A stretch of 63,284 bases of DNA, filler included, from Folioceros fuciformis (GCA_049999805.1; 4 parts of 2 records of this genome joined end to end with filler, not necessarily neighbours in it), one strand, 5' to 3'. Shown: positions 49,055-57,228, counted from the whole stretch's first letter. Notes: generated from the sequence alone by a model not told the origin. Made by a program: numbers and translations.

Positions 49055-49891
49055 TCACACGTTCTCCGGCAGGCTTTTGAATGTGCCGTCGTGCGAAATG
49101 GAAAGGTTGTCATGTGCCCACCTTAACCACACGCAGACAGCCGCAAAGCTAACGACGAAGCTCAGCAGCCCGCTAGCGAGTCCGATGAAAACGATGGAAA
49201 GCGCCGACAGCTGGGCGCCCCCGGGCTGCGGTAACGGAGCTCCATGCAGCAGCGGGTTGCCCGGCCGGAAGGAGGAGAGGTTGAAGCGCGTCCGACCCGA
49301 CGGTGTCTTGGCCAGGTATTTGGGAATCTGGCCCGACAGAGAGTTGCCCACCACGCTGAAGAAATTGAGCTTGTCGAGCGATCCTAGGTCCGGGGGAATG
49401 GAGCCGGTCAAATTGTTTCCACTCAGATCCAGCGCCTCCAGAGCCGTCAGGCCAGCGAGCTCGGTCGGGATGGATCCCACCAGCGAGTTTTCGGACAGGA
49501 TGAGACTCACCAGAGCTGTGAGGCGGCCCAGGTCGGACGGAATTGTGCCGGAGAAGAGATTCGCCGACAGATCCAGCTCCGTCAGGACAGAACAATCGGC
49601 AAGCCCCGGGGACAGAGTTCCCGCCAGCCCGAAGTTTCCCATGCGCAGCGCCCACACGCGCTGGCTCGCTGGCTCGCACTTGATTCCAAGAAAAGGAGAG
49701 GCGCACGGGAAACTGGAACCCGTCCAGTTCCCAGCCAGGAGCCCAGGATTCCTCAAGCTCGACAGCAGCGCGTTGAGGCAGTTGCGATCATTACCCAGCT
49801 GCGCCTCCACCCCCACCCCGAGTCCGACCTCCAGACTGACCAGCACCAGCATTATGGTAATGCATGGCCACGCTCCAGTTCGCATCACCAT
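49055..49891 (-). CDS. LRR receptor-like protein, RLP44/RLP57-like, intronless
   Basis: Signal peptide, LRRNT, 4 LxxLDLSxNxLxGxIP repeats, RFNLSSF..GN, TM SIVFIGLASGLLSFVVSFAAVCVWLR, short tail. Confidence 0.9.
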   Translation of the reverse strand: MVMRTGAWPCITIMLVLVSLEVGLGVGVEAQLGNDRNCLNALLSSLRNPGLLAGNWTGSSFPCASPFLGIKCEPASQRVWALRMGNFGLAGTLSPGLADCSVLTELDLSANLFSGTIPSDLGRLTALVSLILSENSLVGSIPTELAGLTALEALDLSGNNLTGSIPPDLGSLDKLNFFSVVGNSLSGQIPKYLAKTPSGRTRFNLSSFRPGNPLLHGAPLPQPGGAQLSALSIVFIGLASGLLSFVVSFAAVCVWLRWAHDNLSISHDGTFKSLPENV

Positions 49892-50475
49892 CAGATTCAG
49901 TACTACAACATCGGCTCACTCTCTCCAACGCCGACGCCGACGCCAAGTTTTGCAAGTGTAGTCTAAATCGCGAATACCATGTGGCACGCCCTTTTCATCC
50001 CTTTTATGTAGATACATAAATCAGAAGCAGGCTTACGTGCCCCATCACAGCCTGCAGTCACCCACCCGTGCGGCCTGACCTTTTCCCTCCAGCCCCCAAA
50101 AATAGGGGGATAAACTGCACGAGTGGGCGATCCAACATGACGTGCCAGTCACTCGCCCACAACTCCAACAACTTGGGCGACAGTAACCCACGAATAGTGC
50201 CCACAGTGCGTCACAACAAGGCACAGCGTCCAAACTTTGCCTCCAATCATAAAATTATTTGAAGTACAACATCAAGCCAACGCGTGTATGATCGTAACAT
50301 CGGCATCAGGGACCGCTAGCGAGGTCAAGGAACCCAAATTTCCGCGCTTCGTTCCTCCAGCTGTGCATACTCGACTTATCCGATGCCTGCCCTGCACTAC
50401 AGCAGGTAGCAGCTACCTGGAGCTTGGCTCCTCGCGGCTGACGGATCGTGATTGCTGCTAACATTCACTACCATA

Positions 50476-53400
50476 TTAGCCATCCTCCTTAGCAGCCTCC
50501 TCCCGTCGTATTCTCTCCTCCTCCTCCTTGTTGTAGATAGCATTCAATTGCCTCTCAAGCTGCACAGCAAAGCAAAGCAAGGCAAACACACAGCAAAGAC
50601 CATCGTCAACCACCACATACGCAGGTCCGCCGCGGAACCAGACACGAAGCAATAAGTTACCTGCCCGTTCCTTGACTTCAAGTTGTGCATCTCAACCAAC
50701 GCATTACTATATCTACAATGGCAAGAAATAAGACGCCTCAGTTACCTGTACATTCCTTAATTTTTGGTTGTGCATCTCATCCGACAACATTTGCAACCTG
50801 TGAGGCAAGGAACTCGTAAATGCAATGCAACACTCTTGCCCTCAACAGTACTGGACCCCTTCAGGTCGGCTCTCGACACCCTCCCGTTGACTTACTTGTT
50901 TTGAAGCTCTGTGAGCTGGTGCCAAAGATCCCGCTCCCTTTCCGTAGCCAATTCCATCTGACGTAACGCAGATGATTCCCTCAGAAGTGTTCACCACAGA
51001 CCACATAAAAAGCTACCATAAAACATCAAGTCCCAGCGGCACACCTGTGTTAAGTGACACCTTAACGCAAAGCACAAGAACGAAAAGAGCCACTTACAGA
51101 ATATTCACCAGCGCTAATACTCGAACTTCGAGGCAAGTGTTTAGAACTCGAGTGGTTTAGGCGTTGACCTAAAAATGGCCAACAACACGCAACCGTCAAC
51201 TTGTCTCATTACCTCAAATGCTCCCTTACATACCAGATGCCGGGAACACTCACCAGCAGCTGCATCACCCGTGCTGAGGCTATTTATCGCATTCAATAGC
51301 AAATCCTGGAGGGCCAGAAGGGGGCATTACATTCCAATTCACCACCACAGACATAACAAAGCAAACAATACAGAATCTTGGACTCACCTGCTGCACTGCC
51401 CCTTGGTTGTAGATGTTCTGTAGCTGTAAAATCATGGCCGTGACTGGTACTGTACTTGAATTGGAGGGAATTGAAGGTTGTGGCTGAGAAAAGGATGAGT
51501 TTTGTGCAAGTTGCTGCACCATAGCATGAGAAAACATGATCATTACATAATAACACGGTTGAAAAGCCCTGCAACCATTCACCCAAACCAACTTCCTTTC
51601 AGGAAGTGCTCAAACCGTAAGATCTTAAGGGAACTGCGCGCTCAAAAACGTGCCCAACTAGCAAACGGTAACCAAACCATCAAACCCTACAACTTTGCTT
51701 TGGACAGCAGTTCTTCAGCACAGATAGGGCGAAACGACCCTTGACATCAACATCGCGTACTGCACCTGCCTCTCAAAGAAGCCAGACCCAGTGCCTGTAT
51801 CTCGTATAGCCACCCAGTTGCTAGACAAACAATAGAAAAACACATAACTCTCACTCCTACCCTTTAGACCCTTCCCCAGCAAGAAATCACCCGACAAGGA
51901 AAACCAGCGCAATAGTTCCCAAGACAAGAGTTCACAAGGGAGGACCTGGAACACTTCCCCTCTTCCCCTCCAAAGAGGGGAATTGACACCCATAGACATA
52001 GAGAACATTACAGGGGCTGGTAGCATACAAAGAGCCTTCGTTCTGATGACCAGTCACCAACACTGGCAGACTTGTGAAGCGACCCGGTCTGCAAAAGCAG
52101 TTAATGTGCACTGACTTATTATCCAAAAAGAACGGCAGGGCACTACAGCCCCTCCCGGGACCTCTGATCCGACTGCCGCAGAATCAGCCCCCGTTACCCG
52201 AAGCCCCCTCACCGAAACAAAACAAAACAAACAAACAAACAAACAAACAAAAAAGTAAATGGGCTGCCCCATCAAACATAAAACTGAATCACCACCGACC
52301 TGAGCGCTCCCCTTTGATCGGTTACTTGAATGATGGACTTCCTGAAAGGTATGAACCATTTTGAATATCACTGCCTCAGACCGGATCAAGAACCAGCTCA
52401 CCTAACATACCTCACCCAACCCTACGAGGGATCCGAAGTGTTGTTACCTCAGCCATCACCACATCATCTGAAACAACAGAAAAACGTCCCTTCTTCTGTA
52501 TCACAGGCCCCTTCGGCTTCTCGTCAGGACCTTCCTTGCTGGCTACCGCTACACACAAGGTACCAGGACACACAAAATTGTGACACCGCGTACACACAAC
52601 TCGTTCCAATCATGCTTCAGGGTACCAAAACTGGTGAGCATGCTCCAGGTGCAATCCTCGCTAGCAGGCACATACTAGGAGGAGGTCTTGAAGACCCGTT
52701 TGTTGCAGGCCTGGAGTCTGGTATGGGAGCACCTGATGACGTCAAAGGCCCACTATGCGAGCCCCGTTCACGATGATGAGCATTTCTAACCTCATCACCT
52801 GGTCGACTTGACGGCCGGTGGTCCCTATCCCTGTTAGAATTAGCACACCAAACACTCATTCCTCGACACCGCATTGCTTGCCTACAAGAACCAGAAACCA
52901 ACCATACTGGGAATGCGAAAAAGACTCAATCGTGATATCGCTTGAGATACTAACCTGTCCTTTTCATCTTCGCGGCCCCTATACGAGGCCACCACATGAT
53001 CGGGTATCAAAGGGCCACTTGCTGGCCTGCGATGCTCGTCCCTGTCATCACGTTTCAGATCATCCCGTCTATCCTTGTCCGACAGGCTTCGAAGCTCACT
53101 TGCATCTCGAACATCCCTCGATGATTCTGTCCTACGAAGCTCCTGCGTTTTCGCGGATTCGTGCCAGCCTGGGCTTCCATCATCCTCGAATACATCAAAT
53201 CGCCCACTGCACCACCGAGTACATGACGACAGGCAACATAAAGACAAGGTAATAATGAATCACAGATATGGAACCTCATCTATCATACCGACAGTAAAAG
53301 TTCCTAATGAAAATTAAGATAAGTTGTCAGCTGCACAAGGGATGTCATAACTACAAGGATGCTGCTAGAACCTTGCCACAACAAGAACTCAGCTGACAAC

Positions 53401-56400
53401 ATGACACAGCAATCCTACATAACATCTCCAAGATAAGAACTCACATATGCTTGGGCTCTTTCCTCCCCAAAAGCTGCGGTCCAGACCTATAAGTAGACAC
53501 AACAGCGCCACAATTACCTTCAAAAAGGAGGAGGATCCTAGGCCTCCCCTACATTATCGATTTCTAAACTGAGTACGGGAAACCATGCCCCTTATGTCAC
53601 CGCTACACGACATGTCTGGCTTGAACGAGGACCAGCCTCCTTGGACGAGGCCCACCAAAAAATCGGGTAGGAGACAACCACCGGAAAAAACAAAACTGAA
53701 ATCATTTCGCCTTGCTCACTTCCTCACGACCGACAGCCTTACCATCTCCTTACCACGGGACCTAACTTGCCCAAAGTGCCGACAAACTTGGGTAAAGGAA
53801 AACTGATGATACCTAGAAAATGACTTGGACTGCGGTGCTGTTGACAATTGTCCAGTGCGATTCCTTGAAGCACGATCTCCACCCTGGAACAAACTGCCAA
53901 GCTTTAGGATTGAACAACTCAAGTACATTTACCATAGCTCAAACATAACTCACGGCATACTCACTTCGGTCGCGGACTCAGGCTTAAGGGTGCTAGCAGA
54001 TGTTGTCATCTGAGAATCCCTTGTCACAGACGGCTGTGGGGAAGAACTCGCGGCTTGCGAGGCAACTTCTAGTGAGTCATCACTCTCTCTACTTGATCGT
54101 GGCTTCGACTGCTCTTCTTCTTCAGGCACCTTCGAAATTGCTGGTTCGTCATCATCTTGTATCTGTTTATAAAGGTGTCAGAGCGTACTCAAAGGCAGGC
54201 ACTTGGGTGTAGATCCTGTATGAAAGCAATCACCAAGCACAGCCGGAATACCAGAGCTGCCTGAGCCTTCAAATCTTCCACATTGAAGTTCCAACTACTC
54301 ACGCCTCTCTGGTACTCTTGCTGGTCAAATATAATGCATTGTTAGAGAACACAAACTTCATTCCAGATGGCTACGATAATAAGAACACATGGAGCATCTG
54401 CACTCCAGAACCAGCAGGCAGCCTGCATCAATTAACCTGCTACACCATCAATTGATACATGCTGCACTCTGATACATTGCATTCTGTGACTCAAAAGCCC
54501 CAGGACGACGATAGCCTCTTCCCTGAGGGTTTCTAGCCACTTGGACCACCGTAGGCACAGGGAACCATCACCAGGCTTGAAAATGCATCGTAGGTGCGGA
54601 TATGGGAATCTAATGCAGTAGAGTGCACCCATTATCCCGTTTAGCGGAGAAACTGCAGAATCACCTGAGATTTTTCCTCCTGCTCTCCATAAGGCATCTT
54701 CTTCTGAGCCAGCCGAGCTGCATCTTTATCCTGAATGCACAGGACAGTCACAATTCAGAGAGTCTTGAGCCGACATGTAAGTTCAGTCAGACAATCCTCT
54801 GGCAATGTATACCAACCTTCAGGGTTTTCACACGCTCTCCAAGAGGAGGAAGTCCTTCCAAAAGATGTCTGGCAATGTAGTCGGCAGAACGTGCATGCTT
54901 GAAAAATGAGTGTTTTAACAGCTTTTCAGCGGATGGTCTCCTAGTTGGGTCCTTGACGAGGCACATTGCTATCATCTCTTTAAACGACTGCACACAAGTA
55001 ATTGCCAAACATAAGTTGCAGATGCAAGCCCCCAATGCCATATCATTCAGAACTCACTTTTAGATCTCAAAATTCCCACAGCTCCCATCCAAACTGCACA
55101 GAACTACGAGTGTGCGAAAAAGTAAACAATTAACCTTCGAAAACCGCTTATCCCGTTCGTAATCAAGCCCAGGAGGAGCATTTTGCAGGGTCATCAACAG
55201 CACCTATCAAAATGAAGCGAACATACATAGAGATCTTATGCTTGAGAGAAGAGGATCGTACACACGTATCAGGACTAAGATCATGACAGTTTGCAGACAC
55301 CATACTATAAAGCATACCATGGAAAAGAACCTACCTTCATTGGAGGATACTTGGAGAAGGGAGCGTGACCATGAGCAAGCTCCAGTGCAGTTATTCCAAA
55401 AGACCAAATGTCTGCCCTGCAGCACAACACATCTAACACTCAAGTAAGCAGACATGGAGATGCAGGGACACCACATGAAACAGATATACTTTGCAGGCCC
55501 CCCTTGATGATGACACAGTATCTGGCCCGTAAAGTCTTAGGGGGGTGATCTGATCTCAAACTTCAGCGATGTAAACACGCATGAGTCCAGTACAAAACAA
55601 CTTGACTTACTTGAAGTCGTAGCCATGAAGCTGCTCCATAACTTCAGGTGCCATCCTGACATGTCATACTACCATCAGTCTAAACACCCTGAACCCTCCC
55701 ATATACATCACTAGTTTAGTTAGAGAACAGCATCCTGACAAGTTTTACAGCAGCATTTGACGAGAGTAAGCCCCCAAGACACACCAGCAGGGAGTTCCCA
55801 CAAAGGTATTCCGTGATCGTTGTCTGTCACCAGTGTCAAACATGCAAGCTGATACACCAAAGTCTCCAAGCTTGACTGATCCATTTGAGTCAACCAAGAT
55901 ATTCCCAGCCTAACAAGAGAGAAACCCGTGAATGATGGTACTACAAGTCGTTTACCCGATAGCTCAATGATTCGTGACCTTACAATACAAGGGAAGTGAA
56001 CTCTGAGGCAATCTTAGGCTGACAGAATACCTTGACATCTCGATGGATGTGGCCATGGCGATGAAGATACTCAAGGGCCTTCAGTGTCTCCCTCAACACT
56101 GTTGCAATAACAGCCTCCTCAAAGCCGTCAGGATATGCCGCCTTCATGATGTGCAGACAGGAACCCCCAGACATGTAAGGCATGACGACCCATAGACTCT
56201 GATCCACCACGAACGAGCAATGAGCCTTTACAACGTTTGCATGGCTTATCAAGCTCATGGTCTGGGCTTCTCTTCGGATCTCATCCTGCGTCACGTCATA
56301 ATATATGCACAATTCAGCATAGTTACGCACTCAAAGAGTACCCAGGATGCTATTGCTCCCCGAGAAAGTGTCTCCTTCGTCGCTTAAGGAGGCATATACT

Positions 56401-57228
56401 TTGGTACAGGTAAATGTGAACACTGGGAACTTGCCCCGCCTGTCAAACCCTACCCCTATCCAACACCCTAGCTAGAACCTGCCCGGATATCCAATCCAGC
56501 ATAGTTACGCAGTCAAAGATTACCGAAAAGACTGTAGTTCCCTAACACAGTGTTCGCTCACGCAAACAAAGTTGAGATACAGGCAATCGTGAAAAGTGGG
56601 AACTTATTTCAGAGGAGAAATGTAGGGCCAGAATTGCAGTCTACCAGACCCCCGCTGCCCCGCCTGTCCACCCCTACCCCTCTGCCACCCCCTAGCTAGA
56701 ACCTGCCCGGGAATCGTTTAAAAAGAAACACAATCTGGATGTCTCAAATATCCAATTGCATCGCTGAATGAGCGAAGGTGATAGCAATTTGGTTGATAAG
56801 CCTGCATGCCAAACAGCAGGAAGCAGGACGTCTGGTAGCTCGGCAGCCAGCTGACTGCTTCTAAGAAGCCAAATTTGCCCTAATCCTTGAGGACTCAATC
56901 TAATTGACCTTGTGGGAGCTATGCAAAATCATACACACACGCAAAACAGAAAGCACATGTTGAGTGACAAGCACTGTCGTTGACGTGACATTTGCACTCA
57001 CACGCTGTTCAAGCAAGGGCTTGTAGAAAATCGGTGAGCGCGGGATCTCAGCCATAGCAAGCCTACCAGGTTACTGTTGCACTTCTCCAGATCCAAGCTC
57101 TTGATCGCCACAATTTCAGAGAAAGGAAGGCACATCGCGCGATACACAGTTGCGCTCACGCCCTGCCCTACTTCCTCCAAAATCTTGTAGCCCGAGGCCA
57201 CGACAGGGTAGGTTTTCTTCTCCTCCAT
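50476..57228 (-). CDS. STE20-family Ser/Thr kinase (plant MAP4K, BLUS1/TOT3 group, OSR1/fray-like), about 20 exons
   Basis: ATG 57228; [101 protein letters not shown]; final exon [27 protein letters not shown] (50559-50476). Confidence 0.96.
50661..50797 (-). other. Tandem duplicated 52-nt cassette exons (50797-50746 and 50712-50661), putative mutually exclusive pair
   Basis: Both flanked by AG and GTAACT, same phase, paralogous peptides, 33 nt apart. Confidence 0.75.

Follow-up and report, generated by a model that had tools for sequence, protein, structure and literature searches.

Can two neighbouring exons of a plant gene serve as strict alternatives, so that each mRNA carries one of them and never both? 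The question is raised by a locus in the hornwort Folioceros fuciformis (GCA_049999805.1), within a stretch of 63,284 nucleotides (nt), hereafter the window, which consists of 4 parts of 2 records of this genome joined end to end with filler. Here, a gene for a protein kinase of the plant MAP4K family carries, directly before its last exon, two similar exons of 52 nt that we call cassettes A and B. An earlier reading of the DNA made without database searches (the sequence-only reading) had proposed that the two are spliced in a mutually exclusive manner. We compared this proposal with transcript contigs, homologous proteins and the literature. Contigs in which each cassette is found alone support it, and A and B are very probably a true mutually exclusive exon pair.

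The coordinates of both exons, their lengths of 52 nt, phases, splice sites and translations were all reproduced on the minus strand as they had been read before (Table 1). The two cassettes have the same length and the same phase (2 to 0), AG acceptors and identical GTAACT donors; the acceptor of A ends in CTCACAG and that of B in ATTGTAG, while the donors begin with GTAACTGA and GTAACTTA, respectively. A repeat search detected a direct repeat of 46 nt across A and B, with 78% identity and a spacing of 85. The best 52-nt window at offset 85 contained 37 matches, whereas 200 mononucleotide shuffles of the 901-nt region reached 27.8 on average and 31 at most. The similarity thus exceeds that of all shuffles, which implies that the duplication is real. 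Over the whole exon, A and B are identical at 32 of 52 nucleotides and 8 of 17 residues; 9 of the 17 codons differ in the encoded residue and two differ synonymously only. The intron flanks are barely similar: 10 of 25 upstream nt agree, as do the six donor bases on the downstream side, and a short pyrimidine stretch is shared at a one-base shift (TTCCTTGCC / TTTCTTGCC). The spacer between the cassettes is, as had been claimed, much shorter than the other introns: the other 22 introns of the gene measure 81-781 nt, against 33 nt for the spacer. If the spacer is retained and read on from A, it ends in an in-frame TAG, again in line with the earlier reading.

The reading frame tolerates one cassette and no other number. 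We built the exon chain from the joints in transcript contigs, GT-AG ends and the reading frame, and obtained a gene with its ATG at 57228, its stop at 50476 and 24 exon slots, 23 of which are filled in any one mRNA. Translation of all four combinations agreed with the earlier claim that exactly one cassette keeps the frame. With A alone or B alone, the coding sequence comprises 2412 nt (803 amino acids, aa) and has a single stop, at its end. If both cassettes are included, the frame runs into two stops immediately after A, at the start of B, and if both are skipped it ends five residues into the last exon. Since 52 nt is not a multiple of three, the protein is truncated by double inclusion as well as by double skipping. 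In the first case the stop is located about 46 nt ahead of the last junction, and in the second it falls inside the last exon. At these positions, decay of the wrong combinations may be weak, and a truncated tail rather than nonsense-mediated decay (NMD) may be the penalty.

Transcript contigs were used to study which of these combinations are present in RNA. In a search of sequencing runs, the share of words recovered was 0.46 for run X1, from the window's organism, and small for eleven runs from a second organism. We compared contigs of X1 with those of X2, X3 and X7, three runs from three studies of one close relative. The X1 contigs are 100% identical to the window and those of X2, X3 and X7 about 90-99% identical. 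All four runs show GT-AG-bounded skips at the introns of the gene, which indicates that they represent spliced RNA (the library type on record is only guessed). Our statements on joints refer to the 15 listed out of 31.

In the relative, the joint that leads from A to the last exon across B (50559>50746) has a depth of 489.7 in X2, 24.8 in X3 and 278.8 in X7, and the joint that leads from the upstream exon to A (50797>50896) a depth of 489.7, 35.7 and 369.8, respectively. The two junctions expected if A is used alone (50896>50797 with 50746>50559) are therefore present in all three runs of the relative. The joint from the upstream exon to B (50706>50896) has a depth of 27.5 in X3 and 450.3 in X7; in place of the first six bases of exon B, which have diverged, it contains six other letters. 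Of the two junctions that had been predicted for B, the one from 50896 into exon B is accordingly found in two of the three runs, and the one from B to the last exon (50661>50559) is not among the joints listed. The A-branch contigs in X3 and X7 extend just 26-32 nt into the flanks, which is the bubble expected in an assembly graph for two paths with the same flank on either side.

In the window's own organism, record 1 of X1 is a contig of 962 nt with 363 letters upstream of 50559. This length equals 52+62+71+52+126, and the contig thus contains exactly one 52-nt cassette. The depths of two bins tell which one. For 50494-50740 the observed depth of 73 matches the 73.0 predicted if B is covered (152.9 x 118/247), and for 50741-50987 the observed 38.4 matches the 38.4 predicted if A is uncovered (152.9 x 62/247). 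These results imply that the single cassette is B. In X2, the corresponding bin depths of 130.8 and 226 fit A only. Hence, A and B are each spliced without the other between the same flanking exons, and the contig assembled for the window's organism represents the B form. The relative has kept both cassettes and expresses both, a point that the sequence-only reading had suggested checking in related species.

Table 1. Coordinates in the window of the exon pair, the introns around it and the coding region that contains it.
Feature	Position	Strand	Length	Remarks
Cassette A	50746..50797	-	52 nt	17 codons + one base; copy nearer the family consensus; spliced alone in X2, X3, X7
Cassette B	50661..50712	-	52 nt	diverged copy; joined straight to the upstream exon in X3, X7; in the X1 contig
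Spacer	50713..50745	-	33 nt	from A donor to B acceptor
Constitutive upstream exon	50896..50957	-	62 nt	ends in phase 2; codes for the start of the heptad tail; contigs join it to A or B
Intron, upstream exon to A	50798..50895	-	98 nt	joint 50795>50894 (cut +2) in X2, X3, X7
Intron, B to last exon	50560..50660	-	101 nt	
Intron removed when A is used	50560-50745	-	186 nt	
Last exon, coding part	50476..50559	-		27 codons + stop (50478-50476); starts in phase 0; nearly invariant across land plants
Clade III plant MAP4K coding region (OSR1/Fray-like STE20 kinase)	50476..57228	-		from contig joints, GT-AG ends and frame

Further features of the same gene were noted. Record 2 of X1 is a contig of 572 nt at 51487-52058 that is colinear with the genome and spans the 515-nt intron 51514-52028 on the minus strand; its depth is 32.6, compared with 136-153 for the spliced contigs. 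Being colinear, it suggests that the intron may stay in some of the transcripts. The end of intron 1 is spanned by another colinear contig (56708-57095, depth 17). Finally, a simple repeat of the (GTTT)n type occupies 52204-52262 inside the 211-nt intron 52089-52299, and contigs stop there.

How would the choice of a single cassette be enforced? We propose that the pair arose by tandem duplication of an 85-nt unit, made up of the exon and short intron flanks, and that each mRNA would receive A or B, with a 33-nt spacer too short to be removed. A motif scan of the spacer yielded CTTAT as the only branch-like motif of the yUnAy type, with its A at 17 nt from the A donor and 16 nt from the B acceptor. 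With the likely branch site of B at 17 nt from the A donor, U1 on A would get in the way of U2 for B. Exclusivity would then be enforced in two ways, by the steric block and by the frame, and one step further the two tails may differ in their pairing with themselves or with partners. Steric enforcement and a functional difference are both plausible. According to the available text of a review, a too-short intron between such exons prevents their joint splicing, and NMD can eliminate forms with the wrong number of exons if their lengths are not multiples of three (PMC6071210). A and B combine both properties, a short intron and a length that is not a multiple of three.

It is improbable that the pair is exclusive but that choice and exclusivity are governed mainly by competing base-pairing in the RNA instead of by the short spacer. 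A 17-nt pairing with 82% complementarity connects the acceptor of A (50792-50808) with that of the last exon (50548-50564) in both the minimum free energy fold and the centroid fold, and such a helix between acceptors, if formed, would mask A and favour B. However, the 311-nt region folds no better than its shuffles (z-score of +1.72; 96 of 100 shuffles fold equally well or better), the same pairing of 14 out of 17 positions is reached by 8 of 200 shuffles, and an intron of 33 nt remains far below the 81-nt minimum of this gene regardless.

We compared the two cassettes with those of homologous proteins. Among 121 homologues, 54 end in the tail pattern LE.[QK]L[NS], and these gave 34 distinct cassettes of 17 residues, of which a typical one reads V-A-S-L-V-D-E-L-Q-T-V-K-L-R-N-V-Q. 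Cassette A is identical to these at up to 9 of 17 residues (mean 7.2) and keeps K-L-R-N-V-Q. Cassette B is identical at up to 6 of 17 residues (mean 4.7) and keeps E7, K12, R14, N15 and Q17. A and B have M8 and H9 in common, and neither residue is found there in any of the 34 homologue cassettes, in which position 8 is L in 31 and position 9 is Q in 29. These shared derived residues suggest a duplication within the hornwort lineage or an exchange between the copies, and as judged from this comparison the duplication is probably lineage-specific. No cassette resembling B is visible among the 54 proteins that end in this pattern, a set in which each cluster is represented by a single isoform. 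Two metagenome loci were found with an alignment of seven homologue tails: one (L001) is a spliced transcript with a single ordinary cassette, and the other (L002) is genomic, extends just 374 nt upstream of its last exon and has no cassette within that length; neither locus bears on the age of the duplication. In two gene models of Physcomitrium patens (P0011 and P0012), a hydrophobic insertion of about 40 residues lies exactly at the junction before the cassette and looks like a retained intron.

The divergence of B bears on another explanation, namely that each species relies on a single cassette and splices the other, a decaying duplicate, as noise, or that usage differs between species, with B used in the window's species and mainly A in the relative. 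We consider this quite improbable. The B form alone in X1 and the A form alone in X2 would fit it, as would the departure of B from the family consensus at invariant positions; likewise, the 9 of 17 codons with a changed residue, compared with two that changed only synonymously, are also compatible with relaxed constraint. Yet X3 and X7 contain both forms at similar contig depth (A 24.8-35.7 versus B 27.5 in X3; A 278.8-369.8 versus B 450.3 in X7), both exons keep open frames, AG and GT sites and the heptad register in the window, and it is the less conserved copy, B, that is present in the main contig of the window's organism.

On the evidence of these alignments, the cassette is the centre of the conserved C-terminal heptad motif of its clade. 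By heptad count, all tails fit a single register, which is unbroken in the A and B isoforms and has a conserved Asn at an a position. The residues at the five core positions read L-L-M-Q-N in A, Y-A-M-L-N in B and V-L-L-V-N in three homologues. A and B thus differ at three of the five core positions, which suggests that the core of the predicted coil differs as well as its surface. The sequence-only reading had expected two kinase isoforms with different coiled-coil surfaces. Two mRNA isoforms were indeed observed; the difference in surface is reasonable, and probably understated, as far as a heptad count can tell. A structure prediction for two copies of the Marchantia tail scored 0.30, compared with a mark of 0.32, and speaks neither for nor against pairing.

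Several lines of evidence identify the kinase. The exon at 56031-56285 (85 aa) matches the Pkinase domain PF00069 with an E-value of 1.8e-16, and two more exons match more weakly. The translation contains the kinase motifs GQGVSA (for GxGxx(G/A)), HRD and DFG, and the clade III signature GTPyWMAPEv, as defined in PMC8415026 in its available text, is present as GTPCWMAPEV. The C-terminal motif 15 of clade III (LQQRMISLTEELQKEKLKNVQ) is present as well. The protein has SSWNF in place of the motif S(G/A)WNF, which according to the same available text occurs in 64% of clade III and is not obligatory; the Anthoceros orthologue is marked there as 'x (SSWNF)' (PMC8415026). A protein search retrieved 2,479 proteins at E <= 1e-20, of which the best 120 are plant BLUS1/OSR1/Fray-like kinases, the top one 91% identical and none fully so. 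When 40 sequences were placed in a quick tree, neither the moss clade nor the group of vascular plants included the protein, which sat alongside liverworts at an unresolved base; its highest identity within this set is 68%, to a Sphagnum protein. From its domain, motifs and relatives, the gene is assigned to clade III of the plant MAP4Ks (the TOT3/BLUS1 group), and the label MAP4K given to it earlier is right in plant nomenclature.

The first 400 residues, compared by eye with protein AANG002657 of Anthoceros angustus, show about 13 differences (about 97% identity), which points to a hornwort near A. angustus as the source of the window. In Table S3 of PMC8415026, the available part of which we used, AANG002657 has MAP4K4 (TOT3) as its best Arabidopsis match and a length of 847 aa. 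Its length exceeds that of the protein described here by 44 residues (847 versus 803 aa), and this excess could reflect different annotation in or close to the A/B pair. The same source lists four putative MAP4Ks in A. angustus (PMC8415026). The other three are one SIK1-like protein, one MAP4K1/2-like protein and one short protein without the long tail. The hornwort lineage has one canonical clade III MAP4K and few paralogues.

It is very improbable that different loci, strains or alleles, rather than alternative splicing of one gene, account for the A and B transcripts of the relative: the relative's locus is known from contigs alone, which cannot assign a locus, but the window has both cassettes in one gene with intact sites, the branches in X3 and X7 share about 30 nt of flank on both sides, and hornwort gametophytes are haploid. 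Moreover, among the four A. angustus MAP4K models, only one combines a best match to MAP4K4 with a long tail, as far as the available text of the survey indicates (PMC8415026).

Several points weigh against the reading of A and B as a mutually exclusive pair that yields two kinases. Neither a joint between A and B nor a joint that skips both was found among the 15 of 31 joints listed, a result to be read with the tendency of contigs to drop rare forms, and the joint from B to the last exon is likewise missing from these 15. The evidence comes from contigs rather than raw reads, so that isoform ratios are rough. Expression of the pair is seen in at least two hornwort species, but the A form is documented only in the relative, as the contigs of the window's own organism showed just the B form. 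The two kinases of 803 aa, which differ only in 17 residues, are known at the mRNA level. Cassette B lacks L4, which is present in 34 of 34 homologue cassettes, and V/I16, which is invariant or nearly so, and a B protein may therefore be impaired. The steric argument is one of geometry, drawn from intron lengths within a single gene, and the helix predicted between the acceptors of A and of the last exon could also influence the choice.

Two observations concern the surroundings of the gene. An open frame of 286 aa lies directly downstream of the kinase gene, at 49055-49915 on the minus strand; it resembles leucine-rich-repeat proteins and has a hydrophobic stretch near its end. The 3' contig of the kinase in X1 extends 39 letters past 50000, so the kinase gene and this frame are very close. 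Furthermore, the G+C content is 0.34 at positions 1-2000 of the window, compared with 0.41-0.60 elsewhere in it.

No class of alternative splicing is rarer in plants than the mutually exclusive use of homologous tandem exons, and few cases have been linked to a defined protein motif. The statement of the sequence-only reading that this mode is rare in plants agrees with published counts, in which mutually exclusive exons make up 11 of 2,442 peptide-supported events in Arabidopsis and 169 of 19,045 events in the liverwort Riccia. The titles and abstracts listed on Anthoceros splicing and on plant MAP4K exons contain no account of the A/B pair. We also found no splice variants of the C-terminal motif in the papers searched, and the strings 'splic' and 'coiled' occur zero times in the available text of PMC8415026. 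In that text, motif 15 is presented as the element by which clade III MAP4Ks are likely to interact with other proteins (PMC8415026), a clade whose members have been linked to thermomorphogenesis and to blue-light stomatal opening in Arabidopsis. The A/B pair is compact and easy to test, with two exons of 52 nt and a spacer of 33 nt. It is a natural experiment on the role of the C-terminal motif, as well as a small minigene system in which to ask whether the steric rule derived from animals applies to the plant spliceosome.

A further step would be to regard the choice between A and B as a regulated switch that recodes the core of the C-terminal pairing helix, such that one gene provides two forms that differ in pairing with themselves or with partners. 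We put this forward tentatively and regard it as rather unlikely. In Arabidopsis, according to the available text, TOT3 was co-purified with five clade III relatives, and in yeast it binds TOI4 and TOI5 (PMC8415026, PMC8121802). If the switch were real, it would be the splicing equivalent of the paralogue set of flowering plants, in which TOT3 binds TOI4 and TOI5. The presence of A only in X2, of A and B in X3 and X7 and of B only in X1 would then reflect regulation and not sampling.

Exons 2 and 3 of alpha-tropomyosin represent the steric-hindrance type of mutually exclusive splicing. The hornwort pair resembles them as a cluster of two exons in which the intron, or the distance from donor to branch site, would be too short for the exons to be spliced together. 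In contrast to this animal muscle gene, the proposed steric block is here deduced from geometry only, namely the 33 nt of the spacer and a branch-like motif at 17 nt from the donor. With exons IIIb and IIIc of FGFR2, as described in the available text of PMC6071210, the pair shares a length that is not a multiple of three, so that double inclusion or double skipping leads to a premature stop. Unlike in FGFR2, the stops in the hornwort gene fall in the last exon or about 46 nt before the last junction, and truncation may take the place of NMD.

Among plants, a documented parallel is FLM/MAF1 of Arabidopsis, where the choice between two neighbouring exons alters a protein-interaction region, according to the available part of PMC3266260. 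FLM, however, belongs to the MADS transcription factors, and its two exons encode 19 and 15 residues, whereas A and B are of equal length, clearly homologous and 33 nt apart. In animals, tandem duplication is a well-known source of mutually exclusive exons, and the available texts of PMC9741552 and PMC8373072 describe substitution events in which homologous tandem exons are swapped while the isoforms are otherwise identical, as would be the case for A and B. Those animal events are described in the same texts as mostly ancient (PMC9741552, PMC8373072), whereas the A/B pair looks lineage-specific. With TOT3/MAP4K4, TOI4/5 and BLUS1, the hornwort protein shares its kinase domain, signature motif and C-terminal motif 15, as far as the available parts of PMC8415026 and PMC8121802 describe them. 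Unlike Arabidopsis, which has seven clade III paralogues, MAP4K4-10 (PMC8415026, PMC8121802), the hornwort has one canonical gene and appears to diversify the same motif by splicing.

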